The notes under the pieces are model-generated. The model ran no database searches. It was given only the letters and a program-made list of their open reading frames with translations, and was not told the DNA's origin. DNA of 64,000 nucleotides from Candidatus Portnoybacteria bacterium. GTDB taxonomy: Bacteria > Patescibacteriota > Minisyncoccia > Portnoybacterales > GWB1-42-6. Made by a program: the position numbers and the translations under genes. Each line of letters begins with the position of its first letter. Position 1 is the first letter of the stretch. Shown one piece after another: positions 3,768 through 50,058 of this stretch. The stretch lies in contig JACQXN010000022.1 in the NCBI GenBank assembly GCA_016208745.1, positions 19,212-83,211 of the forward strand, given 5' to 3'.

Positions 3768-3796
3768 TTGACAAGACTATTTATTTATGAGATAAT
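3768..3796 (+). promoter_or_regulatory. Sigma70-like promoter TTGACA-N17-GATAAT
   Basis: TTGACA at 3768-3773, 17 nt spacer, GATAAT at 3791-3796. AGGAGG at 3833-3838 precedes ATG 3844. Confidence 0.5.
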
Positions 3797-3843: not shown

Positions 3844-4116
3844 ATGTCAGAAAATATAGAAGTTATAGAAGTGAAAAATTATACCGTGGAAATTAGAGTT
3901 TTAAGTATCCACTTTATCTTTGCATCGGCTGAAAATGGCAGAGTGCATTTGGTGGCTAGATTCAAGCCATACGCACAGATTTACGACCCAGCTTCTAACC
4001 GCGTCCCAAAACCTCTTTTCAAAGAAGCCTGCCGCATAGCTGCGGCGCGACTGAAATCTCAACAGAAAAGGTCCGTGCCCATAAAACACCTCCGCCAAAT
4101 TAAAATGTGGGGGTAG
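3844..4116 (+). CDS. Hypothetical small protein (90 aa)
   Basis: Consensus promoter plus strong AGGAGG RBS 5 nt upstream of ATG; no recognisable family. Confidence 0.45.
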   Translation: MSENIEVIEVKNYTVEIRVLSIHFIFASAENGRVHLVARFKPYAQIYDPASNRVPKPLFKEACRIAAARLKSQQKRSVPIKHLRQIKMWG

Positions 4117-4225
4117 CTGATATGTGATTCCTCCAAAAAAAACAAAACCCTTAGCAACCACGCTAGGGGTTATTTTTATCCTTATATTCTTTATTCGCCA
4201 TTGCAAAAATTTTGTTATAAAATCG

Positions 4226-4324
4226 CGGCGAGCTGAGTGTTTAAAAAATTACCTACGGAGGAGCAAAGCGACGAGTTTAGGAGGTAATTTTTAACAAAGC
4301 GAGTCCGATTTTATCAAAATTTTA
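4226..4324. repeat. ~100 nt structured repeat (family D copy 1) with 11 bp stem AAAAATTACCT/AGGTAATTTTT
   Basis: Near-identical architecture and flanks to 15258-15356; compensatory stem changes between copies. Confidence 0.6.
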
Positions 4325-4398
4325 TGCTTGGCGAGAGTTTTTTGCCTACTTTTTGTCGGTACAAAAAGTAGGTCCTTGCCGTCTTTAGATAAAGACGA

Positions 4399-5730
4399 TT
4401 AACGCATTCCTCTAAGTTCTTCTTTTACAATCTCGCTCTCCTGCCAAGGAATCTTTTTCCCATTTTCCACACACATCCAAACCTCTCCCCCTTTGCCAGT
4501 TAGAATAACCGCATCTCCGGCTTTCGCTAAACTCAATGCTTTTTTTATCGCTTCACGACGATCTAAAATTTCATAGACATTGGAAATTGGTAATTGGGTA
4601 TTGGAAATTCCAGATTTTATCTCCGATAAAATCTGGGTTGGGTCTTCATCATAAGGATCTTCATTGGTAATAATTACATAATCCGCGTATTCTCCAGCCA
4701 AGCGGCCTAAAGCCGCTCTTTTTGATTTATCGCGGCCGCCGCCCTGTGCGCCAAGCAAAGCAATAATTTTTCGCGGATTAAAAATTTTAAGCGCTTTGTA
4801 AGCCGATTCAAGAGAAGCCGGCTCGTGAGCATAATCAACGATAACTGTAAATGGCTGACCTTCATTAATTACTTCCAAACGGCCCGGCGCTGGTTTGGCA
4901 TTTTTTAGAGCCTCTTTTATTTTATCGACTCCGATTCCTTGCGAAATTGCTACGCAAATTGCCGCCGCAGCGTTATACATATTAACCTCGCCGATAAGAG
5001 GCGTAATAAAATTTTCACTGTTAAAATCGAATTCGGTTCTATCCGAGGCCAATTTAATGTTTGCAATTTGAAGCTTTCCAAATCCTCCCCAACCCTCCCT
5101 AAAGGGAGGGAGCGATTCCCCTCCTTTAGGAGGGGCTAGGGGAGATTTTAAAAAATACCCCATTTTTTTCGCCATTGGAATTTTCAAAAAATATTCTGTG
5201 CTCTCATCATCCAAATTATAAACTCCAATTCCGTTTTTCTTTTTCGCCACGGCTTCAAATAATTTTAATTTTGCTGCCCGATAATTTTCAAAACTGCCGT
5301 GGCGCTCAATGTGCTCGGGCGATAAATTAGTAAAAACCGCGACTGAATAATTAATGCCTTTGTGCCGATGCTGCAGAATTCCCTCTGAAGAAGTTTCAAT
5401 TACCGCGTATTTGCATCCTTCGCTAACCATTTGCCGCAATAATTTCTGCAATTTGAATCGGCCAAGCATAGTCTGCTTATAATCATTTATCCACTCCTTA
5501 TCCCTAATTCTAAAATTTACCGTTGTCGCCATGCCGGTTTTAAACCCCGCGCCCTGCAAAATCTGAGCGATTAAATTACAAGTCGTTGTTTTCCCTTTTG
5601 TCCCGGTCACGCCAATTACAATCAATTTCCGTGACGGAAAACCATACACAAGCGCGCCCAAATAAGCGAGCAACCAATGGTACCAACTAAAAATAAAATT
5701 CGGGATAAGTTTTTTTAGAATATTTTTCAT
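4399..5730 (-). CDS. Mur ligase family protein (MurE-like UDP-MurNAc-peptide ligase) with N-terminal membrane anchor
   Basis: GVTGTKGKTTT P-loop and DYAHEP motif of Mur ligases. N-terminus is a TM helix rather than a MurE N-domain. Carries an in-frame palindromic element at 5079-5149. Confidence 0.75.
   Translation of the reverse strand: MKNILKKLIPNFIFSWYHWLLAYLGALVYGFPSRKLIVIGVTGTKGKTTTCNLIAQILQGAGFKTGMATTVNFRIRDKEWINDYKQTMLGRFKLQKLLRQMVSEGCKYAVIETSSEGILQHRHKGINYSVAVFTNLSPEHIERHGSFENYRAAKLKLFEAVAKKKNGIGVYNLDDESTEYFLKIPMAKKMGYFLKSPLAPPKGGESLPPFREGWGGFGKLQIANIKLASDRTEFDFNSENFITPLIGEVNMYNAAAAICVAISQGIGVDKIKEALKNAKPAPGRLEVINEGQPFTVIVDYAHEPASLESAYKALKIFNPRKIIALLGAQGGGRDKSKRAALGRLAGEYADYVIITNEDPYDEDPTQILSEIKSGISNTQLPISNVYEILDRREAIKKALSLAKAGDAVILTGKGGEVWMCVENGKKIPWQESEIVKEELRGMR
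5079..5149. repeat. GC-rich nested-hairpin element (family A copy) inserted in-frame within Mur ligase CDS
   Basis: AAATCCTCCCC..CCCTCCCTAAAGGGAGGG..CCCCTCCTTTAGGAGGGG..GGGGAGATTTT. Translated in-frame on the minus strand as SPLAPPKGGESLPPFREGWGGF. Confidence 0.8.
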
Positions 5731-8277: not shown

Positions 8278-8288
8278 AATCTATTTTT

Positions 8289-8377
8289 TCCTCCTCCCCT
8301 CAGATGAGGGGAGGATTGAGGTGGGGTGCTGAAAAACACCACCACCCCCTGCCCCCTCCTCAACTGAGGAGGGGAAG
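8289..8377. repeat. GC-rich hairpin element (family B copy), intergenic
   Basis: CCTCCTCCCCTCAGATGAGGGGAGG..GAGGTGGGGTG..CCCTCCTCAACTGAGGAGGGG. Near-identical to 45667-45799 except for an internal ~50 nt indel. Confidence 0.7.
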
Positions 8378-8842: not shown

Positions 8843-10921
8843 ATGTCAACCTTCAAGCTCCGCGCACCATTTCGCCCAACAGGTGACCAGCCAGGCGCAA
8901 TAAATGCACTAGTTAAAAATTTAAAGACTGGCATTAAGCATCAGACGCTTTTGGGTGTGACAGGAAGCGGCAAAACTTTTACTATGGCCAATGTGATTGA
9001 GAAAAATCAAAAACCAACATTGGTTATTTCGCATAATAAAACTTTGGCGGCCCAGCTTTATCAGGAATTTAAAGAGTTTTTTCCGGAAAACGCCGTGCAT
9101 TTTTTCGTCTCCTATTATGACTACTACCAACCCGAAGCCTATATCCCCCAAACCGACACCTATATTGATAAAGACGTAAAAATCAACGATGAAATTGACC
9201 GCCTGCGCCACGCCGCCACGCAGGCGCTTTTAACCAGAAATGACACGATTGTTGTGGCTTCAGTTTCTTGCATTTATAATATCGGCTCGCCAGAAGAATA
9301 TCAGAATTTGAGTTTAGAGTTTAAGAAAGGCCAATTTTTGAGCCGCCAGAAATTTTTAAGGCATTTAATATCTCTGCAATACCAGCGATCGGATGTTGAT
9401 TTCAAAAGAGGCACATTTAAAGTCCGGGGCGATTTAATTGAGGTCTGGTCAGCCACTGGCGAACAAATATTAAAATTTGATTTTTTTGGCAATCAGATAG
9501 AAAAAATATCAGAAATCAATTTGCCCAATAATATTTTAAAAGCAGACAAGGAAAAAGAAGTTAAACAGGCAAGAGTTTTTCCGGCTAAATACTGGGTCGC
9601 GCCAGAGCAGAAATTGGGCTTAGCAATAAAAAATATTAAATTGGAGCTTGAAAACCAGCTGGAAAAATTAAAAAGACAGAATAAAATTCTTGACGCCGAA
9701 CGGCTTAAGCGGCGCACCAACTTTGACCTTGAAATAATCAAAGAAACCGGCTATTGTCACGGCGTTGAAAATTATTCACGGCATTTGGAATTTCGCAAAC
9801 CCGGCGAGCCGCCTTTCACCTTATTGGACTATTTTCCAAAAGACTATTTATTGATTATTGACGAATCGCACATGACTGTTCCCCAGCTTAACGGAATGTA
9901 TTTTGGCGACCGCTCGCGCAAAGAAACTTTAATTGAGTATGGCTTCCGCTTGCCTTCGGCGCTTGATAACCGACCGCTTAAATTTAATGAGTTCGAGAAA
10001 AAGGTTGATCAAGTTGTCTATACTTCGGCAACGCCCAGTAAGTACGAAATCGAGAAATCAAAGTCTGTCTGCACGAAAAAAAATCCTCCCCATCCCTCCT
10101 CCGTATCAAGTACGGGGCAAGCTCTAAAGGGAGGGAGTGATTCCCCTCCTTTAGGAGGGGCAAGGGGAGATTTTTGCATCATCCAGCAGCTCATCCGCCC
10201 CACTGGCCTGCTTGATCCGGCAATAGAAATCCGTTCAACTAAAAATCAAATTCCACATTTAATCAAGCAAATCAAAGAAACGGTCGAAAGTGGTGCCAGG
10301 GTTTTAGTAACAACAATTACCAAACGCCTCTCCGAAGACTTATCGGAATATTTGCAAGAGCAAGGAATAAAAGCCCAATATCTGCATTCTGAAATTAAAA
10401 CATTGGAACGACCGGAAATTTTGAAAGATTTAAGACTTGGCAAAATCGACGTTTTGGTTGGCATTAATCTTTTAAGAGAGGGGCTGGATTTACCAGAAGT
10501 TGGGCTGGTGGCAATTTTGGATGCTGACAAGGAAGGCTTTTTGCGCAATGACACAACGCTTATCCAAACAATGGGCCGCGCTTCTCGCCATCCGCAAGGC
10601 CGCGTTATTATGTATGCTGACAAGATTACCCAATCAATGAAACGCGCAATTTCTGAAACCAATCGCCGGCGCAAAATTCAGGAAAGCTATAATAAAAAAC
10701 ATAAAATCACGCCCCAGCCAATTAAAAAAGGCATCCGGCCAAGCATTGTAGAAATTACAAAAATGCCAAAAGGAGCGCTAAAAACTGAGAAAGAATATCT
10801 GGAAGAATACATTAAGGAGCTTGAGTTTAAAATGGAACTGGCTAATCGGAATTTGCAATTTGACGAAGCAATGAGACTGCAAGAACAAATTAATAAATTA
10901 AAAAGGGCGACGAAAAAATAA
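8843..10921 (+). CDS. uvrB: Excinuclease ABC subunit B (UvrB) with ~33 aa in-frame palindromic-element insertion
   Basis: GVTGSGKTF Walker A, helicase motifs, C-terminal UVR domain. Segment CTKKNPPHPSSVSSTGQALKGGSDSPPLGGARGDFC interrupts the conserved ELEKS...RPTGLLDP region. The track start at 8822 is TTG; the ATG at 8843 is more likely. Confidence 0.9.
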   Translation: MSTFKLRAPFRPTGDQPGAINALVKNLKTGIKHQTLLGVTGSGKTFTMANVIEKNQKPTLVISHNKTLAAQLYQEFKEFFPENAVHFFVSYYDYYQPEAYIPQTDTYIDKDVKINDEIDRLRHAATQALLTRNDTIVVASVSCIYNIGSPEEYQNLSLEFKKGQFLSRQKFLRHLISLQYQRSDVDFKRGTFKVRGDLIEVWSATGEQILKFDFFGNQIEKISEINLPNNILKADKEKEVKQARVFPAKYWVAPEQKLGLAIKNIKLELENQLEKLKRQNKILDAERLKRRTNFDLEIIKETGYCHGVENYSRHLEFRKPGEPPFTLLDYFPKDYLLIIDESHMTVPQLNGMYFGDRSRKETLIEYGFRLPSALDNRPLKFNEFEKKVDQVVYTSATPSKYEIEKSKSVCTKKNPPHPSSVSSTGQALKGGSDSPPLGGARGDFCIIQQLIRPTGLLDPAIEIRSTKNQIPHLIKQIKETVESGARVLVTTITKRLSEDLSEYLQEQGIKAQYLHSEIKTLERPEILKDLRLGKIDVLVGINLLREGLDLPEVGLVAILDADKEGFLRNDTTLIQTMGRASRHPQGRVIMYADKITQSMKRAISETNRRRKIQESYNKKHKITPQPIKKGIRPSIVEITKMPKGALKTEKEYLEEYIKELEFKMELANRNLQFDEAMRLQEQINKLKRATKK
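10081..10172. repeat. GC-rich nested-hairpin element (family A copy) in-frame in uvrB
   Basis: ~85 percent identical over 92 nt to 42961-43054, with the same outer AAATCCTCCCC/GGGGAGATTTT and two inner hairpins. Confidence 0.85.
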
Positions 10922-10929
10922 AGGGCATT

Positions 10930-11792
10930 CTTAACAAGTTGGAACAAGGAACAATGAATTCTTTAAGTATTCATGCGGGTTTTTAAAGATTTCAGGGTGG
11001 TTAAAATTTGCTTCAAATTCAGCCACGACATTTTCTAACTTGGAACCGGTAACGTGATGGTATTTTCTTCTGATAAAAGTCCTTAAATTACCAAATACTC
11101 CCTCTATCTCAGAAGTCAGCCCAAACTCCCATTTGGAATGAATGTCTCTTTGGTGAGTGACCGGCCAGGCATTCTTGATGCCCCGGTAATAGCCGGCTCC
11201 GTCCGTAAACAGCTTTGAGCCCGGCTCAACATGTCTGACAATGAATTGAGAGACGTTCTGTTTCTGAACATATTGTTTTGGGATGACTCGCAAAATTACC
11301 TTTTTGGCCAGCGTGTCTTTGGCTGCGATGACCGCTTTACCTCTAAAGAATGCTTCATCCATCTGAATCGTATCTTTTAGCGGAGAAAGCCAGTCAGGAT
11401 CAGGAATATTAAGCCTGAAGTTATCAAGCCAATTTCTAATTGTGACTTCGCTTAATTCTGTAATTTTAATTGTTTGGGTAATTGGCAAATGATTTAGCCA
11501 ACACCACAGAAGCGTGTAAAATGTTTCCCAGGGCAGCTTCATGTTGGACAGCCAGGTGTTGCTGGTTAGAGAGAAGGGTCTGCGGCATTTTTTACAGCGG
11601 TACCGATTCTCTGATTTGTAGACACTACGGCTTTTGCAACGCGGACAATGCAGATGAGTGCCAAAAAGAATACGCCTAACTATCTTTTTAATCTTAACTT
11701 CTGATGGTATTTGTTTTAAATGATACATAGGAGCAGATTTTTTAAAGATTTTCATCTTTATTGTATCATTGAATCTGTTCCAACTTCTTTAG
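10930..11792. mobile_element. IS1595-family insertion sequence (~860 bp) with 11 bp terminal inverted repeats
   Basis: AAGTTGGAACA at 10936-10946 and its exact reverse complement at 11776-11786 flank a transposase ORF. Confidence 0.65.
10931..11755 (-). CDS. IS1595-family (ISXO2-like) transposase
   Basis: N-terminal zinc ribbon CPRCKSRSVYKSENRYRCKKCRRPFS and a DDE region (IQMDEAFF...TDGAGYY); 274 aa. Confidence 0.75.
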   Translation of the reverse strand: MKIFKKSAPMYHLKQIPSEVKIKKIVRRILFGTHLHCPRCKSRSVYKSENRYRCKKCRRPFSLTSNTWLSNMKLPWETFYTLLWCWLNHLPITQTIKITELSEVTIRNWLDNFRLNIPDPDWLSPLKDTIQMDEAFFRGKAVIAAKDTLAKKVILRVIPKQYVQKQNVSQFIVRHVEPGSKLFTDGAGYYRGIKNAWPVTHQRDIHSKWEFGLTSEIEGVFGNLRTFIRRKYHHVTGSKLENVVAEFEANFNHPEIFKNPHEYLKNSLFLVPTC

Positions 11793-11863
11793 TATACCCA
11801 AATCATAATGTATGCCTAGCCGCGATGGTTTCGTGGCAAAATCACATCATTAGGGAGGCGGCA

Positions 11864-12055
11864 ATGGAAAAATGGGAAAAGTTTCTTAGTCGAGCCATGG
11901 TCGGAGGACTTGGTGAAAAAGTGAGAGAGGCTGTTATGGCAAATCCCGCTAGTCGCGATGACATAAAAATCGTCATCAAGGCTGCCGTAGAATTCGGGGG
12001 CCTGTCGGATGAGGCAATCATCGAAAAATACGGACCATCACCATTTCGCGGATAA
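11864..12055 (+). CDS. Hypothetical small protein (63 aa), higher GC than surroundings
   Basis: AGGGAGG RBS before ATG 11864 and a rho-independent terminator downstream. The longer track ORF starting 11720 is likely an overextension. Confidence 0.45.
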   Translation: MEKWEKFLSRAMVGGLGEKVREAVMANPASRDDIKIVIKAAVEFGGLSDEAIIEKYGPSPFRG

Positions 12056-12078
12056 CTCGGCCGCGTGTCAGTTTTACA

Positions 12079-12122
12079 CCCTGTCATAAAAAGCTTAGCG
12101 CCTACTGACAGGGATTTTTTTT
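12079..12122 (+). terminator. Rho-independent terminator
   Basis: CCCTGTCA..TGACAGGG hairpin followed by T8. Confidence 0.6.
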
Positions 12123-12141
12123 GACAGCGACCCCCTTTTTC

Positions 12142-12170
12142 TTGCCAAAAATAAAATTATCTGCTATATT
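12142..12170 (+). promoter_or_regulatory. Sigma70-like promoter TTGCCA-N17-TATATT for rpsT
   Basis: Spacing and hexamers read directly from the sequence. Confidence 0.45.
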
Positions 12171-12270
12171 CTCAATACAATCGAAAAACTAAAAATTAAG
12201 AATGAAAAACAACAATTAAAAATTAAAGGTTAATTTTTAACTTTTTCATTTTTCCTTTTTATATTGAAAT

Positions 12271-12528
12271 ATGCCAATCAAAGAATCAGCTAAAAAAGCA
12301 TTAAGACAAGAAAAAAAACATCGCGTTTTGAATTTGGCGCGGCAAAAAGCGGCCAAAGATGTTGTCAAAAAAATCAAAAAAATGGCAACTGCCGGCCAAA
12401 AAGACGAAGCAAAAAAGCTTGTCTCGCAAGCATATCAAGCCGTGGATAAAGCCGTTAAAAGAGGCGTCATCAAAAAAAATACCGCGGCCAGGCAAAAATC
12501 AAGATTAATGAAAATGCTGAATAAATAA
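12271..12528 (+). CDS. rpsT: 30S ribosomal protein S20
   Basis: 85 aa, Lys/Ala-rich, KKALRQEKKHRVLNLARQ and C-terminal KKNTAARQKSRL match S20. Confidence 0.85.
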   Translation: MPIKESAKKALRQEKKHRVLNLARQKAAKDVVKKIKKMATAGQKDEAKKLVSQAYQAVDKAVKRGVIKKNTAARQKSRLMKMLNK

Positions 12529-12531
12529 AAG

Positions 12532-12571
12532 AAAAACCACCCGATAAAATACTGGGTGGTTTTTTGTTTTT
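12532..12571. terminator. Bidirectional rho-independent terminator between rpsT and the convergent gene
   Basis: AAAACCACCCgataaaatactGGGTGGTTTTTTG flanked by A- and T-runs. Confidence 0.6.
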
Positions 12572-12573
12572 TA

Positions 12574-13212
12574 CTATTCTTCTACCAGCTCCGCAAGGAG
12601 CCTTCCCCAATCTTTCAGCCCGTCCTTTGTTTCCATATGGTTTGATGCAACAAGCTTGGTGTCGCCAGCTGAAAAACCAAAGAGTCTGTCAAAGGCAAAA
12701 ACGAATGGGTCGTCATGATGATTCCCCTGCGTAATGATCCCGACTTTCTTCACGCCAGCCTGCAATGCCCTCAAAACAATTATCGGCCCGTAAGGCATCT
12801 CACCCTGCTTTGAAACTAATTCCTCGCCTTTGGCGTTCATGCACTGATTCCCACCCTTTGGAAGCATAACGTCAGTAAGCACAACATCAAAGGGCATGTG
12901 CTTTGATTCTACTTCTGCCTTACGAAGAGCGAGCCTTATTTCTTTGGGAGCTTCGAAATGAGGCATTTCCTCTCCTTCGGAATTCCGCAAATACCAAATT
13001 TTGTGATTTGGGATACTGCTGTCTTCTTCTATTATCTTCCATCCACCTGTCGCTTTCTCAAATGCTGCCCTGAATTCATTAGGGTCAACGACAGGGATTA
13101 AAACTTCATGAGCCTGATCATATCCGGTTACAATGGTCAGCTCATGACCCCCTAACGCTCTCTTTGCCGCCTCAATATTCTTCTCCTTGTCTTCAACCAC
13201 TAAAATCTTCAT
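12574..13212 (-). CDS. Atypical receiver (CheY-like) domain protein with ~55 aa internal insertion; no output domain
   Basis: MKILVVEDKEK start and VVLTDVMLP phospho-acceptor context. Insertion between beta2 and beta3; K-P motif absent. Elevated GC relative to neighbours. Confidence 0.5.
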   Translation of the reverse strand: MKILVVEDKEKNIEAAKRALGGHELTIVTGYDQAHEVLIPVVDPNEFRAAFEKATGGWKIIEEDSSIPNHKIWYLRNSEGEEMPHFEAPKEIRLALRKAEVESKHMPFDVVLTDVMLPKGGNQCMNAKGEELVSKQGEMPYGPIIVLRALQAGVKKVGIITQGNHHDDPFVFAFDRLFGFSAGDTKLVASNHMETKDGLKDWGRLLAELVEE

Positions 13213-13350
13213 AATACCCTCCTTCCCTTGCCTGCTCTTTTGGAGTTCAGATCTTATAGGGCTCTGGTTTTTTAAAGAACCATCTTACATTTTTATCATA
13301 CCAGAATTTGTCAAATAATGTCGGCCTGTTGATAAAAAAATTGATAGCTA

Positions 13351-14235: not shown

Positions 14236-15189
14236 CTATCCCGTTATTTCTGCCACCACCAAATCCAACGCCACCTTAGGCTCAATTTTTCCGCGCTTGA
14301 TTGCAATATCAAGCTTTAATAACCTGTTGTATATTTTTTCTAAAATCTCCAGGCTAAAATTCCTAATTTGCGGCCAGGATTTTTTTATAACAAAAGGGTG
14401 TAGGCCGGTTTTTTTAGCCAAGGCGCCAAATTGCGTCCCCTGCTCTGACAGGCTCTTTATCTGTAATAAATTCCTGAACTGATAAACAAACATTGATAAA
14501 ATATAAATTTCGCTCTCGCCCTGCGACAAATGCTGATGCAATAATTTATAAACCAGTGTTTTATTCCTTGAGGCTAGAGCGTCAATGGTGTTAAAAATAT
14601 TGGGGTCAAATTTTGCTTTAACTAAAATATCTATATCCTTTTCGCCAATGGGGTCTTCCGCCTTATAGGCAACCAGCTTTTCAATTTCATTGTGCATCTG
14701 CCAAAGATCCGAACCGACTGAACCAGCTAATTTTTCTGCGGCTTGCGGCAAAATTTTGCCGCCAAAATTCTCCACCTCTTTTTTTATCCAATTGATAAGC
14801 TTTACTCCGCTGAGATATTCAAAATTTTGGGCCATCTCTGATTTTTTGGCCAACCAATCAAACAACTCTCCCTTCTCTGGTTTCTTGCTCTCAAAAAATA
14901 CCAGAATTATATCTTCGTCTTTTTCGGTTTTCTTTTTTTCCAGCAATTCTTTTAATTTCTGCTGGTCAGATTTTGCCGCCAAAGACGCCTCTTTGATAAC
15001 AATTAATTTTTTCTCGGCAAACATAGAAATAGAACCAAGCATATTGCCAAGCTCGGCCCATATATCAGGCAACCAATCAAATTGCCTAAAATTAAGGCCG
15101 CTTTTGTGTTTAACTTGATAGCCCTCAACAATTTCCTGTAATTTTTGACGGGACCGGAAAGTATCAGGCCCGTAAAGAAAAATGATCAT
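14236..15189 (-). CDS. holA: DNA polymerase III delta subunit
   Basis: N-terminal MIIFLYGPDTF...; 317 aa, HolA-like length and pattern. Confidence 0.75.
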   Translation of the reverse strand: MIIFLYGPDTFRSRQKLQEIVEGYQVKHKSGLNFRQFDWLPDIWAELGNMLGSISMFAEKKLIVIKEASLAAKSDQQKLKELLEKKKTEKDEDIILVFFESKKPEKGELFDWLAKKSEMAQNFEYLSGVKLINWIKKEVENFGGKILPQAAEKLAGSVGSDLWQMHNEIEKLVAYKAEDPIGEKDIDILVKAKFDPNIFNTIDALASRNKTLVYKLLHQHLSQGESEIYILSMFVYQFRNLLQIKSLSEQGTQFGALAKKTGLHPFVIKKSWPQIRNFSLEILEKIYNRLLKLDIAIKRGKIEPKVALDLVVAEITG

Positions 15190-15257
15190 AACGCTCCTTT
15201 AATATGTATTAAAAATTCAGCCTTCTCCTTGCATCGAAAAATTTTGCAAGAAAATTG

Positions 15258-15356
15258 AGATGAGCGAGGCGTTTGAAAAATTGCCGAGCGACGAGGGAAG
15301 CGAGGAGTTTACGAGGCAATTTTTAGATGAGCGAATCCAATTTTCTCAAAATTTTA
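15258..15356. repeat. ~100 nt structured repeat (family D copy 2)
   Basis: Matches 4226-4324 including flanks gagcgag..gttt(g/a)aaaaatt and gagcgaatccaattttctcaaaatttt. Stem covaries (TTGCC/GGCAA versus TTACCT/AGGTAA). Confidence 0.6.
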
Positions 15357-15431
15357 TCGCTGCAAGTGGTTTTTTGGTTACTTTTTTGTCATCAAAAAAG
15401 CAACTCTTTACCGCCTTTGGATAAAGGCGAT

Positions 15432-16487
15432 TTAATTCCCATAAGCTACTTCTTGTGTCGGATCCGCGATTTGAACCCAAATTTGGCCGGGCACGAATTT
15501 AATTTCCTGATCTTGCTCGTCATAAAAAAATAGCTTGCTTTTTTGACTCTTACTATCTTTTTCCCATCTGCCTTTAATAACTTGTCCGTTTAAATAAAAT
15601 TCAGCATCACCATTGCCTTCAATCTGAACATCGTTATATTGATCTTCCAGTTGACGGGATTGCGCCCTCATAATAACAATGTTTTTTGCCTCAACTTGGG
15701 AATTGTTATTTTTGTCTATTTCTTTTAAGTTATTGCGAAAACGAAAATAAGAATTGGTTTCTGGATCATATTGATAAGAAACACCAAAAGCGCCCGGATA
15801 TTTAATTTTTAAAATCTTTTTTTCTTTTTCTTGGCTGGCGATTTCACTTTTTAAAAGATGCTGATAGCCAACCAATTCTGATGTCAACTGATAACCAAGT
15901 TTCCCGGCCGTGTCTAAAAGCCTTTTGGCAGAGGTAAATCCGTTATGAGGCGCCGCAATGCCGGATTGACGATAAAAAGCATTATAGGGGTTAGGCAGGG
16001 CGTCAATATTATCCATGATGCCGGTTTTTAATTTTTCCAACGCAAAATGAGATCCGCCCCAATGGGCATAAATCGCGTCAAGGCCCAGAGCCAAAGGGAT
16101 AAAATCGTGCCGCGCCGATCTGACAGAGCCGATTTTTTCCGGAGAGTTGCATACAAAAACCGCCATTAGGCGCGTAATGCCGCCTTCCACCACCGGCATT
16201 TCAAAAACTAAATCCGCTTGTGAAATTCCAGCCAGCGGCCGCGCCTCAGCATCACTGCTTAGCATAATGGCTAGCGGCCGGCGATTGGCATTCTCGCAGG
16301 CAAGACCTGAAATCGGACTCTTTGGCCCCTGATCTTCGTTTATTTCCTGCTCTTGCTTGTTGTTCTGGCCTGAAACAAACTCAAAAGTACGGCCCTTCTG
16401 CCAAACAAAAAATGCGCTGCCCAGCAACACAAAAAATAAAATAGCGACAAAAATTATAAATTTAATTTTTTTCCTATTCGCCCTCAT
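15432..16487 (-). CDS. DUF3048 domain protein (YerB-like lipoprotein)
   Basis: ISGLACENANRRPLAIML...ADLVFEMPVVEGGITRLMAVF matches the DUF3048 core; N-terminal TM/signal. Confidence 0.7.
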   Translation of the reverse strand: MRANRKKIKFIIFVAILFFVLLGSAFFVWQKGRTFEFVSGQNNKQEQEINEDQGPKSPISGLACENANRRPLAIMLSSDAEARPLAGISQADLVFEMPVVEGGITRLMAVFVCNSPEKIGSVRSARHDFIPLALGLDAIYAHWGGSHFALEKLKTGIMDNIDALPNPYNAFYRQSGIAAPHNGFTSAKRLLDTAGKLGYQLTSELVGYQHLLKSEIASQEKEKKILKIKYPGAFGVSYQYDPETNSYFRFRNNLKEIDKNNNSQVEAKNIVIMRAQSRQLEDQYNDVQIEGNGDAEFYLNGQVIKGRWEKDSKSQKSKLFFYDEQDQEIKFVPGQIWVQIADPTQEVAYGN

Positions 16488-23035: not shown

Positions 23036-23139
23036 GCGGAAATAATCATATTTTTCTTCACGCCTTCATTTAGATTGGCGCTCGCGCCTCAAGTAGAACC
23101 CGTAGCCAACCCGATGAAGAAAAATATGATTATTTCCGC
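23036..23139. repeat. Family E element: 25 bp perfect stem enclosing a conserved GC-rich loop (TTGGCGCTCGCGCC)
   Basis: GCGGAAATAATCATATTTTTCTTCA ... TGAAGAAAAATATGATTATTTCCGC. Second copy at 30699-30805 with compensatory stem substitutions. Confidence 0.65.
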
Positions 23140-30698: not shown

Positions 30699-30805
30699 GG
30701 CGTAAATAAGCATATTTTTCAACGCGCCTCTATCAAGTTGGCGCTCGCGCCTATATTAACGAGCCCACAGCCAGCCCGACGTTAAAGAATATGCTTATTT
30801 ACGCC
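30699..30805. repeat. Family E element copy 2 (long stem plus conserved GC loop) in divergent aspS/PBP promoter region
   Basis: GGCGTAAATAAGCATATT ... AATATGCTTATTTACGCC. Loop contains TTGGCGCTCGCGCC as in copy 1. Confidence 0.65.
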
Positions 30806-33543: not shown

Positions 33544-33837
33544 TTAACTAATGAATCTCATTTTTTCTATTAACTCCTTACCAAATAATTGATTAAGGTG
33601 TTGAATAATTCTTATTTGTTTTAATTGAAGATCAGAGGCCCAAATAGAGTTTAGGCAGTCAACGATTAAAACCTTATCCTTGAAAGAAACCGGTTTGGTT
33701 TTATTTCTATAAACTTCTCCGAAAAGTTCTACTAAAATTTTATCCCAACCCAAAGCAAGCTGGTTAAATTCTAAAACCGGGCCGAGGTTTAGTTTGTTTA
33801 TCGTAAAGGGGAGAATTTTTTTTAGCGTGACCCACAT
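33544..33837 (-). CDS. DUF721 (DciA-like) protein downstream of dnaN
   Basis: 97 aa; conserved position after dnaN and C-terminal pattern typical of DUF721. Confidence 0.55.
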   Translation of the reverse strand: MWVTLKKILPFTINKLNLGPVLEFNQLALGWDKILVELFGEVYRNKTKPVSFKDKVLIVDCLNSIWASDLQLKQIRIIQHLNQLFGKELIEKMRFIS

Positions 33838-33842
33838 TATAG

Positions 33843-34946
33843 TTAGGTTTTAATTGGCATTATTACATACAGAAATCCATCTTCGCCAGAGGGCCTAATA
33901 ACAGATGGACTGGTTTCTGAATTTAATCCCAAGGAAACATTTTTTGTTGAGATATTGCTTAAGCCATCCAAAAAATAACGAAAGTTAAAGATAACTTCCA
34001 TTGGTTTACCTTTGACATCAGCTGGGATTTGGGATTTATTTTCACCCAAATCAGCATCTTGAGACAAAATATCAATCTTACCAGAATAAATAGACAGCTT
34101 AACGTCATTTATTTTACTGCTAAAAATACTGGCGATTTTAATATTATTAACAAACTCATCCTTAAGAAGGGTTGCCTGAGTTTCAAAGCTTTTGGGGATA
34201 ATTTGTTGATAATCAGGGTATTGGCCGTCAATAATCCTTGAAATCAATTGCACCTCATTAGTCTCAAATAAAACTTGGCTATCGCCCAAAATAAACCTAA
34301 CTTCATTATCTGGCTTTTCGGTTAATATCCTAATTAGTTCCTGAATGGTGCGCTGGGGAATAATTAAAGAGATTGGTTTTGTAATTAAATTATTTGTCTG
34401 ATAGATAGTTTTTTCGGCTAGTCTAAAGCTGTCGGTTGCCACAAATTTAATTGCTTCTTTGTCTATTTTAAAAAGGATTCCTGAAATTTCAGGCCTTGAT
34501 TCAGAAAGAGCAGCCGAACCAACAACTTGAGATAAATTATTTTTTAATATCTCGCCTTTTTTAAAAATTATAATCGGCTTTTCTTTTATTTTAGGAATTA
34601 AAGGAAAATCATCAGACGGCAGACCCTTGATGCTAGCTTTGTAATTTTCACACCTAACAAAAAGGGTGTTATCTTTTACCTCTAGTTCAATTTTTTTATT
34701 TGGTAAACTATTAATAAAACTGCTTAATATTTTAGCTGGACAAGTAATTGAACCTTGTTTTTCTATTTTTCCTGAAGTCCAAGTGTTAATACCAATTTCA
34801 AGATTAGTTGAAGAAATTTTTAATCGGCCACCCTCGGTTTCAAGTAATAAATTATTTAAAATCGGCAAAGTTAAATTACGGCCAACAATATTTTGGGTAA
34901 TATTTAAATTGGTTTTTAGATTTTCCTGAAGACAGATAATTTTCAT
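33843..34946 (-). CDS. dnaN: DNA polymerase III beta sliding clamp
   Basis: 367 aa, three-domain clamp pattern, immediately downstream of dnaA. Confidence 0.9.
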   Translation of the reverse strand: MKIICLQENLKTNLNITQNIVGRNLTLPILNNLLLETEGGRLKISSTNLEIGINTWTSGKIEKQGSITCPAKILSSFINSLPNKKIELEVKDNTLFVRCENYKASIKGLPSDDFPLIPKIKEKPIIIFKKGEILKNNLSQVVGSAALSESRPEISGILFKIDKEAIKFVATDSFRLAEKTIYQTNNLITKPISLIIPQRTIQELIRILTEKPDNEVRFILGDSQVLFETNEVQLISRIIDGQYPDYQQIIPKSFETQATLLKDEFVNNIKIASIFSSKINDVKLSIYSGKIDILSQDADLGENKSQIPADVKGKPMEVIFNFRYFLDGLSNISTKNVSLGLNSETSPSVIRPSGEDGFLYVIMPIKT

Positions 34947-35152
34947 TAATTTAATTTTTAATTTATTTTAATGTTATATTTATTAAGTAATTACTTATTT
35001 GTGGAAAAGTTTGTTTTGTTGAAGACTGTATTAAATTTTTTATTTAATATATTGTTGATAATATATTAAAATTTAAGGGGATTATTATTATTTGTAATTA
35101 TTTTTTATAAAATAATTATTTTATAAAGTATTTATCCACCAGATATTAATTA
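34947..35152. promoter_or_regulatory. Candidate oriC: AT-rich dnaA-dnaN spacer with DnaA-box-like motifs
   Basis: ~85 percent A+T. TTATCCACC at 35132-35140 and TGTGGAAAA at 35000-35008 are each 8/9 to consensus. TATTTGTGGAAA recurs at 36835-36847 upstream of dnaA. Confidence 0.4.
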
Positions 35153-36523
35153 TTAAATACTATAAAATCTTTCTTTAATTAAATTAATTTCTTGTTGTAG
35201 GGATTCGTTTTTTTGTAGCTCTCTATTTAATTTTTCACAAGCATACATAACAGTTGTATGATCTCTGCCGCCTAACTTCTCACCAATAAAAGGAAAGGAG
35301 CTTTTTAATTCCTCCCTGATTAAAAACATAGCTACTTGTCTTGGCCAGACTAACTCTTTTTTACGACAACGATTAATTAGGTGGCTAGTGTTTATATCGT
35401 AAAATTCTGATACTGCCTGAAGAATAACTTTATAACTTATTTTTTTAGAAGGAGGTGAGGTAATGCCGGTTAGTATTTTTGAAATTTGCTCCAATGACGG
35501 CAGGGAGCCGCTTAATTTAAGGGTAATCATTACTCTATTTAATGCTCCTTCAAGCTCCCTGATATTTTTTTGAATATTGGCAGCGATATAATTTAACACC
35601 TCATCGCTTATTTGAAGATTTTTTTCGTAACACTTTGCTTTTAATATAGCGATTCTTGATTCTAAATCAGGATAGCTGATATCAGCGATCATTCCCCCTT
35701 CAAATCGTGATTTTAATCTTTCTTCAAGCGTTGAGATAGCTTTGGGCGGCCGATCAGAACTTATAATTATCTGTTTATTGTTTTGATATAAGGCGTTAAA
35801 GGTATGGAAGAATTCTTCCTGAGTTTTTTCTTTGCCGGATAAAAACTGAACATCATCAATAATTAAGACATCGATTTTTCGGTAACTATTCTTAAATTCC
35901 TCCATTTGCCCATTATAAAGGGCAGCGACTAGCTCATTGGTAAATTTTTCAGAACTTGTATAGCAGATTTTTTTCTCGTTTTTAAAGTTTTTAACTATTT
36001 CGTTGCCAATTGCTTGGATAAGATGGGTTTTGCCCAGCCCCACCCCGCCATAAATAAATAAGGGGTTATAGAGCCGGCCAAGGTTTTTAGTTATTGCTTG
36101 GGCAGCCGCTTGGGCCAATTCATTGAACGAACCGACAATAAAATTATCAAAAGTGTATTTTGGATTAAGGTGGGTCTCTTTGTTGATCTCAAGCTCTTGG
36201 AAAGACTGATTGACAATTTCGGTTTCTTTCCGTCTGGGAGGAGTTGATCGTCCAGGCGTTGCCAGTTCTGGCAAGGAAATCGCGGCAATGACAAATTCAA
36301 CCTCTTTTACTTCAGGTAAAATATTTCGCAGAGCTCTTAATATTAATTTATTGTATTTATTCTCCAGCCACTCTTTAGAAAAAGCATTAGGGACGCCGAC
36401 TGTCGCGGCGCCTTCTCTGGTTTTTATTACATCGGTGTTCCGAAACCAAGTAATAAAGTTTGTCTTGGAAATATTGAGTTCAATTTCCCCTAAGGCAGCT
36501 TGCCAAAGCTCGTGGTTGGTCAT
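35153..36523 (-). CDS. dnaA: Chromosomal replication initiator DnaA
   Basis: GGVGLGKTHL Walker A, AAA+ motifs, C-terminal DnaA-box-binding HTH; 456 aa. Confidence 0.92.
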   Translation of the reverse strand: MTNHELWQAALGEIELNISKTNFITWFRNTDVIKTREGAATVGVPNAFSKEWLENKYNKLILRALRNILPEVKEVEFVIAAISLPELATPGRSTPPRRKETEIVNQSFQELEINKETHLNPKYTFDNFIVGSFNELAQAAAQAITKNLGRLYNPLFIYGGVGLGKTHLIQAIGNEIVKNFKNEKKICYTSSEKFTNELVAALYNGQMEEFKNSYRKIDVLIIDDVQFLSGKEKTQEEFFHTFNALYQNNKQIIISSDRPPKAISTLEERLKSRFEGGMIADISYPDLESRIAILKAKCYEKNLQISDEVLNYIAANIQKNIRELEGALNRVMITLKLSGSLPSLEQISKILTGITSPPSKKISYKVILQAVSEFYDINTSHLINRCRKKELVWPRQVAMFLIREELKSSFPFIGEKLGGRDHTTVMYACEKLNRELQKNESLQQEINLIKERFYSI

Positions 36524-37056
36524 AGAGATTTATCGGCTAGAAGCGATTATAATTTCTAACCTTTGTTTTTAAAAAATAAACAAATATCAGCCCCCGTCAT
36601 TTATTGGCGGGTAGAGAGCGGGCTGTATAAATCTCAGTAGTTTTACAGAAGGCGTCTGTATTTAAAGAAAGCCTTTTGTAAAACCGCTGAGGGAGCAGGC
36701 GGTTTTGTAGCGTGTCCTGCTTGGCCCGAATTTTAATGGACTTTTTAACTTTTCCAATTATATCACAAAGAAAATTATTGAGAATAACCCTGTCTATGGC
36801 CAGAAAGACACAATTTTGTTAATAAGGTGTGCAGTATTTGTGGAAATCATTTTTTAAATTGACTTCGTAATTATTTAATACTATACTTAATTTAATCCAA
36901 TGTCAAAATATGCCGGGTAGTGAAAATTTGGCAGATAACATTCTTCCTCCGTAAAAGTTTCAAAACCGGCAAAGGCGAACAAAAATTAAGTAGAAACGAT
37001 TTCTAAGATTAAATTTATTAACGAATTTAATCTTAGCCAAATTTCTGCTAATCGGT

Positions 37057-37191
37057 ATGAGTATAACCTATAAGCCCAAAAAAAGAAAACGCAAGAAAAC
37101 CCACGGGTTTTTGAAAAGAATGAGGAAATTCGGCGGCCGTCGGGTTTTAAAAAAAAGAAGAGCCAAGGGCCGTAAGCATTTAACGGTTTAA
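37057..37191 (+). CDS. rpmH: 50S ribosomal protein L34
   Basis: Manual translation [44 protein letters not shown] (44 aa). Not in the ORF track because it is under 60 aa. Confidence 0.85.
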
Positions 37192-37194
37192 TCA

Positions 37195-37539
37195 ATGTTA
37201 CCCAAAATTCAGAGATTAAGAAAGGCCGGTGATTTCAAAACGGCCCTAAAAAGCGGGCGGTTTGTCAGGGGCGAATTAATGGATATAAGATTTTCTGCGA
37301 ACGATCTTGGTATTTGCCGTTTTGGCTTTATAATAAGCGCCAAGGTTTCCAAAAAGGCTGTTTTGCGCAATCGGGCGCGCCGACAAATATCCCAAGCAGC
37401 TAAGGCGCTTATCGGTTATATCAGGCCCGGTTATGATTTTGTGATTATTGCTAAACCAAAAATCATCGGCAAAGATTCTGGTGAAATTAACCAAAAATTA
37501 AATGACTTTTTTAAGAAAACTAACCTTTTTAGTCAATAA
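37195..37539 (+). CDS. rnpA: Ribonuclease P protein component
   Basis: [14 protein letters not shown]-terminus and RNR-like motif (RNRARRQ); 114 aa directly after rpmH. Confidence 0.85.
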
Positions 37540-37783
37540 AGCCGCCTTAATTTCTATTAGATTTTATCAGGTTGCTTTATCGCCAGATCAGGGAATTTTA
37601 CGAAAACAAAATAATGTCTGCCGATTTTATCCCTCCTGCTCTCATTACAGCTTTGGCGTGATTAAAAGATTCGGTGTTATGAGGGGCGCTTGGTTGTCTT
37701 TTAGAAGAATTTTAAGATGCCACCCGCTAAGTAGCGGGGGTTACGATCCTATCCCCCCAATTAAAAACAATGGACATAATTAG
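37502..37783 (+). CDS. yidD: Membrane protein insertion efficiency factor YidD
   Basis: [11 protein letters not shown] ... [12 protein letters not shown] signature. Confidence 0.75.
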
Positions 37784-38486
37784 TTTATTATTTAACGAAG
37801 TTTTATATAGACCGCTTTTTAACGGCTTGATTTTTTTATACAATACAATTCCCGGCCATGATTTTGGCGTGGCGATTATTGCTTTAACTTTAATTATCAG
37901 GGCGGCTATTTATCCCTTAGCGCAAAAGTCTCTCAAATCTCAAAGAGCATTGACTGAGCTGCAGCCCAAGGTTAAAGAGATTCAGCAGAAGTATAAAGAC
38001 GATAAAGAAAAACAAGGCCGGGCCCTAATGGAGCTTTACAAGGCCAATAAAGTTAATCCGGCTTCAGGCTGTTTGCCGCTTCTTATTCAATTGCCAATTC
38101 TTTTGGCTTTGTTTAGCGTTTTCAGAACCGGCCTGGATCCCGAAAGGTTAAATGGACTTTATAGTTTTATTTCAAATCCGGGCGTTATTAACCATATGTT
38201 CCTTGGTTTTCTGGATTTATCGCAAAAGAATCTATATTTAGCCCTTTTGGCTGGCGCAGCGCAGTTTATCCAGTCTAAGATGATGATGCCAAAATCAAAC
38301 AAATCCAGCGCTACTGATTTTTCAGGCGCCATGCAAAAACAAATGCTTTATATTTTCCCGATTATAACAGTCTGGATTGCAGCGAGTTTGCCAGCGGGGC
38401 TCGGGCTTTATTGGTTGGCAATGACTTTATTTGGAGTGGCTCAACAATATTTTCTTTTAAGGAAAAAAAATGAACAACGAATTTAA
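37770..38486 (+). CDS. yidC: YidC/Oxa1-family membrane protein insertase (short form)
   Basis: Conserved TM core (IIRAAIYPL...[16 protein letters not shown]); 238 aa. Confidence 0.85.
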
Positions 38487-38934
38487 AGAAACATTAGAGG
38501 TAATAGTTAAAGAAACGCTTTTAAAAATGGATTTTGAGGGCGAAATTTCATTTGACTCAGACCAGCAAGACTTGTTGATATTAAAAATAAAAAGCGAAGA
38601 AGCCGGTCTTTTAATCGGTAAAGGCGGCGAGACAATGGCGGCGCTACAGCATCTAATCAGGGCAATTGTTAGTAAAAAAATAGGAGCCTCGGCGCCAAAT
38701 TTCATTATTGATGTTAATGATTACCGGTATAATCAGATAGAGTCATTAAGGGAACGAGCCCAGGCTTTGGCAAAAGAAGCAATACTGGAAGGCCGATCAA
38801 AGATTTTGGAACCGATGTCTTCTTATGAGCGAAGAATAGTCCATTTAGCTTTGCGTGATGTTCGGGGTATAAAAACTGAAAGCGAGGGAGAGGGCTTATT
38901 AAGAAGAGTAGTGATCAAGCCAGATGCTAGTTAG
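38470..38934 (+). CDS. khpB: Jag/KhpB RNA-binding protein (KH + R3H domains)
   Basis: C-terminal R3H (YERRIVHLAL) after a KH-like region; located after yidC. Confidence 0.8.
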   Translation: MNNEFKETLEVIVKETLLKMDFEGEISFDSDQQDLLILKIKSEEAGLLIGKGGETMAALQHLIRAIVSKKIGASAPNFIIDVNDYRYNQIESLRERAQALAKEAILEGRSKILEPMSSYERRIVHLALRDVRGIKTESEGEGLLRRVVIKPDAS

Positions 38935-42960: not shown

Positions 42961-43054
42961 AAATCCTCCCCAACCCTCTCCCCGTATCAAGTCCGGGGCA
43001 AGCTCTAAAAGGAGAGAGCGATCCCCCTCCTTTAGGAGGGGTTAGGGGAGATTT
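42961..43054. repeat. GC-rich nested-hairpin element (family A copy), intergenic
   Basis: Near-identical to the uvrB-internal copy at 10081-10172. Confidence 0.8.
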
Positions 43055-43065
43055 TAGCTAGTCTC

Positions 43066-45639: not shown

Positions 45640-45666
45640 TTATTGTGGGCTACGAAACACTCTTTT

Positions 45667-45799
45667 CCTCCTCCCCTCAGATGAGGGGAGGATTGAGGTG
45701 GGGTGATGATTATTCGCGTGGACGCATTTGCATGAATTCGCGCCATTTAAATGCAATCAACACCACCCCCTACCCCTCCTCATCTGAGGAGGGGAGGAG
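45667..45799. repeat. GC-rich hairpin element (family B copy with ~50 nt internal palindromic insert), intergenic
   Basis: Same termini as 8289-8377 (CCTCCTCCCCTCAGATGAGGGGAGG ... CATCTGAGGAGGGGAGGAG). Confidence 0.7.
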
Positions 45800-47638: not shown

Positions 47639-47687
47639 TAGAATAAATTAAAAAGTAAAAAAAGAATTATAAGCGTTATCCCCCTCT

Positions 47688-47773
47688 TTATAAAAGAGGG
47701 ACTAAGGGGGATTTATATTGAAGACTATTTTTAAAATCCACCCCAGCCCTCCTTTTTTAAAGGAGAGAGCAGG
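47688..47773. repeat. GC-rich hairpin element (family B copy) separating the two VirB4 ORFs
   Basis: Reverse-complement relative of the element at 56006-56090. Lies between the stop at 47777 and the ATG at 47638, which are in the same frame; the intervening 138 nt contains stops. Confidence 0.75.
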
Positions 47774-47776
47774 CCA

Positions 47777-48409: not shown

Positions 48410-48432
48410 AAAGTTAATTTAAATATCAAATT

Positions 48433-48497
48433 GTCATTCCTGCGAAAGCAGGGATCCAGGTTTTATGAGTCTGGATTCCCGCTTTCGCGGGAATGAC
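48433..48497. repeat. Family C hairpin repeat (GTCATTCC-TGCGAAAGCA-GGGATCC / GGATTCCC-GCTTTCGC-GGGAATGAC)
   Basis: Internal hairpins CCTGCgaaaGCAGG and TCCCGCtttcGCGGGA with outer GTCATTCC/GGAATGAC inverted repeat. Relatives at 56371-56462 and 56878-56900. Confidence 0.65.
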
Positions 48498-48553
48498 ATA
48501 GAATGTTCTAGGGATTTTGTTGATGTCAGACGTCAGCAGATTAATTGCCTAAT

Positions 48554-48859: not shown

Positions 48860-48911
48860 AACTCAAATATCAAAGCACGATTTCACGCTTGGTAATATTA
48901 TCGGTCTTCGG

Positions 48912-50055: not shown

Positions 50056-50058
50056 AAA

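Follow-up and report, generated by a model that had tools for sequence, protein, structure and literature searches.

The window analysed here comprises 64,000 nt of contig JACQXN010000022.1 (positions 19,212 to 83,211 of the forward strand, GenBank assembly GCA_016208745.1) from the metagenome-assembled genome of a Candidatus Portnoybacteria bacterium; positions below are those of the window. It carries two copies of a conserved structured element in intergenic regions, and these copies raise the following question: does the element belong to its locus, as a terminator, a 3' untranslated region (3' UTR) module or a small RNA, as an earlier note on this DNA had proposed, or is it a repeat dispersed among loci? 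Copies at six independent loci, orthologous sites that lack the element, and hairpins in which many base pairs have changed on both sides point to the second possibility. We regard it as probable that the element is a dispersed palindromic repeat, similar to MITEs (transposable elements of the miniature inverted-repeat type) and to the ERIC, Correia and REPIN sequences, that is co-transcribed with the gene upstream and is probably mobile.

The element and its copies

The homology of the two window copies is evident from a blastn comparison of the window with itself (E=1e-28 to 1e-29, ~74-75% identity), in which positions 4205-4424 are paired with 15237-15455; at the fixed offset of 11032, 198 nt can be compared without gaps at 72% identity. 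The homology spans ~4195 to 4424 and ~15227 to 15455, about twice the length first noted. The presence of two homologous structured copies in intergenic regions was thus correctly recognised in the earlier note, while the intervals given there (4226-4324 and 15258-15356) lie inside the element and cover only its middle part. No third copy was found in the window by blastn self-comparison or by profile and covariance-model searches.

Folding of either strand places the 11-bp stem from which the element was first recognised at the apex of a ~140-nt imperfect hairpin (4195-4334; 15228-15366). As a whole, the element is a non-coding sequence of ~205 nt consisting of this long hairpin, a T/A run, a 12-bp hairpin 2 and, in some copies, an 8-bp hairpin 3. 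The fold energies of both copies lie 4-6 standard deviations under those of dinucleotide shuffles, with z-scores of -6.4 (copy 1) and -5.5 (copy 2) for the minus strand and of -6.2 and -3.9, respectively, for the plus strand. The parts of the two copies are as follows.

4195-4334: copy 1, long hairpin of ~140 nt, with outer stem TCGCCA/TGGCGA, A5T4 stems, GAGCGA internal loops in both arms and, at the apex, a loop of 27 nt rich in purines; matched by the covariance model at 142.6 bits
4244-4292: copy 1, apical stem-loop; AAAAATTACCT (4244-4254) pairs with AGGTAATTTTT (4282-4292)
4338-4343: copy 1, T6 run separating the long hairpin from hairpin 2 (A6 when read on the minus strand)
4345-4372: copy 1, hairpin 2 with a 12-bp stem, CCTACTTTTTGT/ACAAAAAGTAGG
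4380-4397: copy 1, hairpin 3, CGTCTTTA..TAAAGACG, 1 nt short of the Mur ligase stop codon (4399-4401)
15228-15366: copy 2, long imperfect hairpin with outer stem CTTGCA/TGCAAG; covariance-model match of 144.5 bits
15276-15324: copy 2, apical stem-loop; AAAAATTGCC (15276-15285) pairs with GGCAATTTTT (15315-15324)
15370-15375: copy 2, T6 run
15377-15404: copy 2, hairpin 2, GTTACTTTTTTG/CAAAAAAGCAAC, with one plus-strand A.C mismatch that is a G.U pair on the minus strand
15412-15429: copy 2, hairpin 3 (CGCCTTT GGAT AAAGGCG), 2 nt short of the DUF3048 stop codon (15432-15434)

Searches outside the window revealed additional copies. When JGI metagenomes were scanned for a pattern in which 25 bases of the 3' arm are specified, five loci were returned, all of which gave full-length nhmmer matches (E=1e-34 to 1e-51). 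Three of these (L033, L034 and L037) represent a single locus in three samples, downstream of the gene for the CCA-adding enzyme (cca); in L035 the element sits between a tsaC-like gene and a PAP2 gene, and the copy in L036 is truncated by the contig end. A walk through cca orthologues added a further, very divergent copy in L042, at the same cca position (cca 82% identical), with 56-63% identity to the other copies. Including those of the window, the independent loci number six. The earlier note had let its proposal depend on the existence of more homologues, and both the metagenome scan and the cca walk supplied them.

The named relatives closest to the L033 cca protein are Portnoybacteria (72-75% identical), and a family confined to a clade of Candidatus Portnoybacteria, a lineage of the candidate phyla radiation (CPR), is the best-supported view of its distribution. 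In 185,579 species-representative genomes, among which the source species is apparently not included, an apex-loop pattern scan gave 22 matches, all due to chance. Two scans of viral contigs likewise gave chance matches only, and BLAST against phage and plasmid collections found no match to the element. The whole window had no match in Rfam 15 at the gathering threshold; when matches up to E=10 were considered, the best sub-threshold ones differed between the copies and scored 24-26 bits against thresholds of 70-100. The shapes of 6S and signal recognition particle-like RNAs were considered and dropped, as there is no central bubble and no Rfam signal.

Sites with and without the element

The genes adjoining copy 1 are unrelated to those adjoining copy 2.

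3844-4116, plus strand: open reading frame (ORF) of 90 aa without a Pfam match, converging on the Mur ligase gene, with copy 1 between them
4146-4171: terminator of canonical, GC-rich type immediately past copy 1; it was scored on the plus strand, and both strands bear T-runs (T8 on the minus strand)
4399-5730, minus strand: Mur ligase gene (Pfam Mur_ligase_M and Mur_ligase_C), upstream of copy 1 in the gene's own direction
14236-15189, minus strand: holA (DNA polymerase III delta), downstream of copy 2
15432-16487, minus strand: DUF3048 gene, upstream of copy 2

Both copies therefore lie downstream of minus-strand genes, and copy 1 lies in addition downstream of a small plus-strand ORF, in agreement with the earlier description. 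This ORF has a promoter near consensus (TTGACA-17-GATAAT with TG before it, 3768-3796) and no homology to the small genes that follow Mur ligase in relatives. The C-termini of the Mur ligase and DUF3048 proteins are of normal length compared with their orthologues, which indicates that the element begins after the stop codon. At all six loci it starts no more than ~25 nt downstream of a stop codon, and at all six its orientation is the same: the strand corresponding to the window's minus strand is the sense strand of the upstream gene. Copy 2 and the L035 copy are located between tandem genes; 38 nt separate the end of the former from the start of holA, and 24 nt that of the latter from the start of PAP2.

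Has the element been inserted at these sites? The DUF3048 gene and holA are separated by 242 nt in the window, whereas in three relatives (L006, L008 and L010), whose 60 kb lack the element, their spacing ranges from a 4-nt overlap to +6 nt. Since the two genes are contiguous in all three, copy 2 is most simply interpreted as an insertion. At the cca locus, the element is present in L033, L034, L037 and L042 and absent from orthologues at 75-86% amino-acid identity (L043-L049), with empty sites counted in five relatives. In one of the element-free cca orthologues (L047, 1891-1950, and also L048), another hairpin with a ~20-bp stem, GACGTGTGACGTCCC...GGGACATCACACGTC, is found directly after the stop codon, which suggests a turnover of hairpin elements at gene 3' ends.

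The similarity among copies does not follow the genomes that carry them. Copy 2 is closer to L036 (90%) and L035 (85%), both from other metagenomes, than to copy 1 of its own genome (69%), and the elements of L035 and L036, which occupy different loci, are 94% identical. The idea of a locus-specific module, as held in the earlier note, has to give way to that of a dispersed repeat, given the absence of the element from orthologous sites and the identity of up to 94% between copies at unrelated loci. The L033 and L037 elements are 96.8% identical over 188 nt without gaps, while nucleotide identity between the same two contigs falls to 81% and 88% in the neighbouring genes, to 82% in the final 44 nt of cca and to ~69% in the immediate flanks. 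Judging from these figures, either nearly every position of the element would be constrained or the element would be younger than its surroundings. At the same cca locus, the L033 and L042 elements share 58% identity; this value, together with the patchy distribution, favours recent spread or replacement.

Several observations bear on the boundaries. In L033, an exact 9-bp direct repeat, TTAAAAATT, occurs at both boundaries within A+T-rich flanks, and an imperfect version of it is found in L037. The inverted repeat of the element is internal and corresponds to the arms of the long hairpin. L042 carries a gene for a large serine recombinase (11692-13344; domains Resolvase, Recombinase and Zn_ribbon_recom) that is convergent with cca and stops ~12 nt short of the long hairpin's base. 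The source environment has been assembled from short reads three times independently (Logan L001-L005; SRR12113404, SRR12113398 and SRR12113406), and each of these assemblies breaks inside copy 2 at ~15338-15347, where the breakpoint coincides with the self-complementary CAAAATTTTG. Such breaks are typical of a repeat or palindrome in a de Bruijn graph and hint at further, closer copies.

The only insertion sequence (IS) of the window is an 877-bp member of the IS1595 family (10923-11799), with 24-nt terminal inverted repeats, GGGCATTCTTAACAAGTTGGAACA, and a transposase gene on the minus strand (10931-11755); it separates uvrB from rpsT, two genes that are neighbours in relatives. The element was considered as a MITE derived from this IS, and this origin was rejected, the terminal repeats of the IS being unrelated to the element.

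Covariation, strand and competing explanations

An eight-sequence alignment of the long hairpin, which was guided by a covariance model, i.e. fitted to the structure, and is thus biased in the structure's favour, shows standard pairs in 94.7% of its cells and changes on both sides in 16 of the 43 pairs, compared with 5.9±1.6 in shuffles, none of 500 of which reaches 16. When the partners were moved by 1-3 columns as a control, 2-4 both-side pairs and 30-54% pairing were obtained. A hand-curated alignment agrees, with 17 of 60 pairs changed on both sides, hairpin 2 included. The outer stem is the clearest case, with three different Watson-Crick pairs at each of two positions.

TCGCCA/TGGCGA: copy 1 and L042
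CTTGCA/TGCAAG: copy 2 and L036
CGCGCA/TGCGCG: L035
CTTGCA/TGCAA: L033 group

The apical stem in which compensatory differences had first been reported is present, and a single pair of it differs between the window copies, A-T versus G-C; in the alignment, this is pair 57/101, A-U in copy 1 and G-C in six other copies. Hairpin 2 is 98.3% paired; both partners have changed in five of its 12 pairs, and no pair is altered on one side alone. Hairpin 3 occurs in copy 1, copy 2 and L042 with one compensatory pair and is absent from the L033 group and L035. Asymmetric internal loops are kept in all copies, namely a 4x2-nt loop and the GAGCGA of both arms, which forms tandem G-A oppositions on the plus strand. 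Such changes in the long hairpin and hairpin 2 show that the hairpins are maintained by selection through compensatory substitutions, and the selection on secondary structure that the earlier note had proposed is well supported by their number.

In the L033 group and L042, the apical loop is interrupted or replaced by unrelated GC-rich mini-hairpins. Nested small GC-rich hairpins of this type (e.g. GCCCCCGCCGCAGCGGGGAGC) are seen in the apical loops of L033 (8890-8915), L037 and L042 and in hairpin 2 of L036 (131-165). It seems that other mini-repeats insert preferentially into hairpin loops.

Could the conservation reflect a small protein such as a peptide resembling type I toxins? A plus-strand ORF of 54 aa (MSEAFEKLP..., 15260-15424) is present in copy 2, ORFs from the same ATG are open in L036 (58 aa) and L042 (57 aa), and the C-terminal part is mildly hydrophobic. 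We nevertheless rejected this candidate, to which hardly any credence can be given. The mismatches between copies 1 and 2 are spread flatly over the codon positions (18/19/19), all six frames score alike, and the substitutions track base-pairing instead of codons. Moreover, the frame does not stay open in several other copies: it contains three stops in copy 1 and a TGA at codon 13 in L035, and L033, L034 and L037 carry frameshifts, while the ORF of L042 uses another frame over most of the homologous bases and encodes a peptide without amino-acid similarity.

Another important question is how the element relates to transcription. On the minus strand, the sense strand of the upstream genes, no hairpin followed by a U-tract was found inside either copy. 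The calls of the terminator scan within the copies are on the plus strand only (4330-4346 and 15412-15429), where 3 nt separate the long hairpin from a downstream U6 or UCUUUU. The element thus appears to let sense transcription pass and to resemble a terminator for antisense transcription only. Because copy 2 and the L035 copy sit between tandem genes, minus-strand RNA of the element must exist, barring a promoter borne by the element itself. The proposal of a terminator or 3' UTR module therefore holds in part: the element follows directly after stop codons at all six loci, but a gene-sense hairpin with a U-tract is lacking and copy 2 must let transcription pass.

According to the explanation that we favour, the element would be transcribed as a 3' UTR or intercistronic part of the mRNA of the upstream gene, as its position and the lack of a sense-strand terminator suggest. 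Sense transcription would continue into holA at copy 2 or as far as the terminator at 4146-4171 at copy 1; this terminator is likely to form the 3' end of both the Mur ligase transcript, after read-through of the element, and the convergent 90-aa ORF. If ERIC and Correia repeats serve as a guide, the long duplex and the two stop-codon-proximal hairpins may act in RNA stability or processing, as a barrier to 3'-exonucleases or as a substrate of an RNase III-type enzyme. In the opposite direction, the long hairpin with its U-tract might block convergent or antisense transcription. The fixed orientation could result from selection against polar insertions or from a strand-specific insertion mechanism.

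A number of observations weigh against this explanation. Among the non-Watson-Crick pairs, plus-strand G.U and plus-strand A.C, the latter equivalent to minus-strand G.U, are tied at ~4 events each, so that selection could act on DNA instead of RNA. Folds of the plus strand are 4-12 kcal/mol more stable than those of the gene-sense strand, a difference that shuffles also show, and the invariant tandem G-A loops are a plus-strand feature. With regard to mobility, no flanking direct repeat was found at copy 1, copy 2, L035 or L042; the ends of the element are not inverted repeats of each other (on the left, the outer stem TCGCCA or CTTGCA; on the right, hairpin 2 or 3); and no transposase is linked to it. 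The relatives with an empty DUF3048-holA site are distant (holA 62-68% identical), and the element may conceivably have been lost in their lineages. The known copy number is low as well: two in 64 kb, with no further copies detected by nhmmer profiles or the covariance model R1 in the window and up to ~395 kb of fetched loci.

The main rival, which we consider rather unlikely, holds that the hairpin matters only as DNA, single-stranded or cruciform, as a substrate of a transposase or recombinase or as a site of recombination or rearrangement, that it is kept for its own propagation, and that the RNA has no function. The lack of strand bias among the wobble pairs fits this rival, as do the patchy presence at the cca locus and the 9-bp direct repeat of L033; the copies are also more alike than their flanks, in line with recent spread. 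Past the left edge of the element, L033 and L037 lose synteny within a few tens of nt, and the recombinase gene of L042 ends beside the hairpin. The orientation pattern is also compatible with it. The replication-origin region of the window (33544-38934) comprises dciA, dnaN and dnaA (35153-36523) on the minus strand, a 671-nt gap (36524-37194), and rnpA, yidD, yidC and a KH/R3H (Jag-like) gene on the plus strand; this places oriC near 36.5-37.2 kb and both window copies on one replichore. The copies and their flanking genes have a fixed orientation relative to oriC, and a rule based on the replication strand would give the same pattern and is inseparable from one based on the transcription strand. 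Against a purely DNA-level role, neither the ORFs of >=70 aa in the window nor the Pfam annotation of the fetched loci revealed a Y1/RAYT, IS110 or other candidate enzyme. The asymmetric internal loops, which templated repair from arm to arm would erase, are kept in all copies, and the element must be transcribed anyway in copy 2 and L035, which lie inside tandem gene pairs. (The origin region also contains A/T-rich palindromes at 35081-35199 and inverted repeats at 36633-37031.)

Two further rivals assign the element its own transcription start or promoter activity. A free-standing small RNA gene in paralogous copies, giving either a minus-strand RNA whose apical loop would offer C/U-rich CCUCC motifs for pairing with Shine-Dalgarno sequences or a plus-strand RNA ending at the U-tract, is distinctly improbable. 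It could account for the 17-nt loop segment GCGACGAGTTTAGGAGG, identical in copy 1 and L035 although the elements are 75% alike overall, for CCUCC or CUCCUCC in the minus-strand apical loops of copy 1, L035 and L036, and for the plus-strand hairpin followed by U6; a minus-strand RNA from copy 1 could end at the terminator 4171-4146. Nonetheless, no promoter is conserved on either strand: in copy 1 the scans give weak, differing sites, within copy 2 they give none, and shuffles contain 2.3-2.7 promoter-like sites per kb in this 60% A+T DNA. The small RNA suggested in the earlier note is not sustained by this result. Moreover, a start site inside the element would omit the outer stems, which show the strongest covariation; the loop is replaced or interrupted by unrelated GC-rich hairpins in L042 and the L033 group; and the element is inserted within an otherwise contiguous gene pair and has copies at unrelated loci. 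The other rival is a Correia-like insertion bearing a promoter or leader by which the next gene (holA, or in L035 PAP2) is driven or regulated. The invariant minus-strand TTTTGAnAAAAT resembles an extended -10 (TGnTAAAAT-like), a minus-strand TTGAnA is followed 18 nt later by TAAAA(A/T) when the sequence is read directly, and the elements of copy 2 and L035 end 38 and 24 nt before the next start. Since, however, the scan calls none of those sites in copy 2, the TTGAnA hexamer is absent from L042, promoter-like strings are common in DNA of this composition, and no co-directional downstream gene exists at copy 1 (terminator and convergent ORF) or L042 (convergent recombinase gene), we rate this rival as very improbable.

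A more far-reaching possibility, unlikely in our judgement, is that the element is a domesticated, CPR-specific 3'-UTR or intercistronic cassette that passes sense transcription, blocks antisense transcription and sets mRNA ends, or that it owes its mobility to the hairpin without any known transposase. The former would imply selection on the element above that on adjacent essential genes (96.8% versus 81-88% identity between L033 and L037).

Known repeat systems and the other repeats of the window

Small palindromic repeats of bacteria have been reviewed with ERIC and Correia (PMC10969869) and with repetitive extragenic palindromic (REP) sequences (PMC3733652) as examples. ERIC at gene 3' ends alters mRNA decay with orientation-dependent effects, Correia hairpins are cleaved by RNase III and may bear promoters, and nested insertion of one small repeat into another is known (PMC10969869). 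The element resembles ERIC and Correia/NEMIS in being a non-coding imperfect palindrome of 100-200 bp that forms one long hairpin and is dispersed intergenically inside or at the ends of transcription units; the nested mini-insertions in the L033 and L036 copies provide a further parallel. It differs from them in its asymmetry, with two extra short hairpins on one side, in its termini, which are not inverted repeats, in that only one locus has a repeat like a target-site duplication, in its CPR host, in its far stricter position no more than ~25 nt from a stop codon at all six loci, and in the lack of a match in Rfam, phage and plasmid collections, the consensus sequences not having been compared directly.

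REPINs are extragenic, are located mostly downstream of coding regions between unidirectional or convergent genes and persist in lineages (PMC3116915; PMC3733652), and the REP unit is a 20-40-bp palindrome tagged by unpaired GTAG or CGTC (PMC3733652). The element shares with REPINs and REP-containing mosaic elements (BIMEs) the long hairpin of two inverted arms, the extragenic location mostly behind coding regions, plausible transcription and persistence within a lineage, and its hairpin 2 ends in GTAG in copy 1 and the L033 group. This tag is, however, not conserved (GCAAC in copy 2, GTAAC in L035 and L042), and CGTC opens hairpin 3 only in copy 1. The arms are not 20-40-bp REP units, and the element is A+T-rich instead of G+C-rich. 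Unlike in the REPIN/RAYT system, where a RAYT tyrosine transposase encoded by a single-copy gene mobilises the repeats, no RAYT gene was present among the sequences examined, and the known copies are far below the tens to hundreds typical of REPINs.

Some known small repeats are terminator-like or reside mainly in the 3' UTRs of ORFs (PMC10969869); in contrast to these, the terminator-like side of the element faces away from the upstream gene, and there is no sequence relationship. With intrinsic (Rho-independent) terminators the element has in common hairpins right after stop codons and a plus-strand U-run after the long hairpin, while it differs in that the gene-sense strand has no U-tract after its hairpins, the stems are A/U-rich, copy 2 lies within a gene pair that is contiguous in relatives, and a separate canonical terminator follows copy 1. 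With MITEs it shares a non-coding length below ~500 bp and dispersed copies with empty orthologous sites; terminal inverted repeats were not found, nor was a parent IS or transposase with matching ends, a comparison that covers the IS of the window only. The class of repeat is long established, and this family is new, with no known sequence relatives. A literature search for palindromic repeats or MITEs in CPR bacteria found nothing relevant.

The window contains other repeats. A GC-rich mini-palindrome family with the core CCCTCCCTAAAGGGAGGG..CCCCTCCTTTAGGAGGGG is represented at 5063-5152, 10088-10177, 42969-43058 and 48895-48984. Two of these copies are located in frame within essential genes, adding ~24 aa to the Mur ligase (SPLAPPKGGESLPPFREGWGGFGK) and ~36 aa to UvrB (..KKNPPHPSSVSSTGQALKGGSDSPPLGGARGDF), and both inserts are absent from the orthologues; these in-frame inserts, here in a CPR genome, resemble the palindromic elements of Rickettsia. 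A second long-hairpin family of ~105 nt has copies at 23036-23139 and 30699-30805, on the plus strand just upstream of the plus-strand ruvB and a class A penicillin-binding protein gene; the arms of 25-26 nt are 92-100% complementary, and between the copies, which are 81% identical, the arms have changed in a compensatory manner and the GC-rich centre, TTGGCGCTCGCGCC, is conserved. There are also an intergenic 47-nt repeat at 98% identity (8286-8332 and 45663-45709; TTTTCCTCCTCCCCTCAGATGAGGGGAGG...) and intergenic inverted repeats with arms of 66 nt at 56802-56974 and of 49 nt at 2034-2143. A type IV secretion/conjugation-like cluster occupies 45812-53959 on the minus strand (TraG/VirB4-like ATPase, PrgI-family protein, TrbL/VirB6-like protein), with genes for a GIY-YIG protein (54926-55234) and a 23S rRNA intervening-sequence protein (55413-55739) beside it.

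At least three hairpin-forming repeat families, namely the element described here, the ~105-nt family and the GC-rich mini-palindrome, are therefore present in this Portnoybacteria window. CPR bacteria have very small genomes. For annotation, this means that such repeats should not be taken for locus-specific riboswitches or small RNAs, and that they fragment short-read assemblies. The strict position after stop codons, the fixed orientation and a conservation above that of the neighbouring genes make the element a convenient test case for two questions: do small repeats serve as RNA-end or insulator modules in streamlined genomes, and what moves them?

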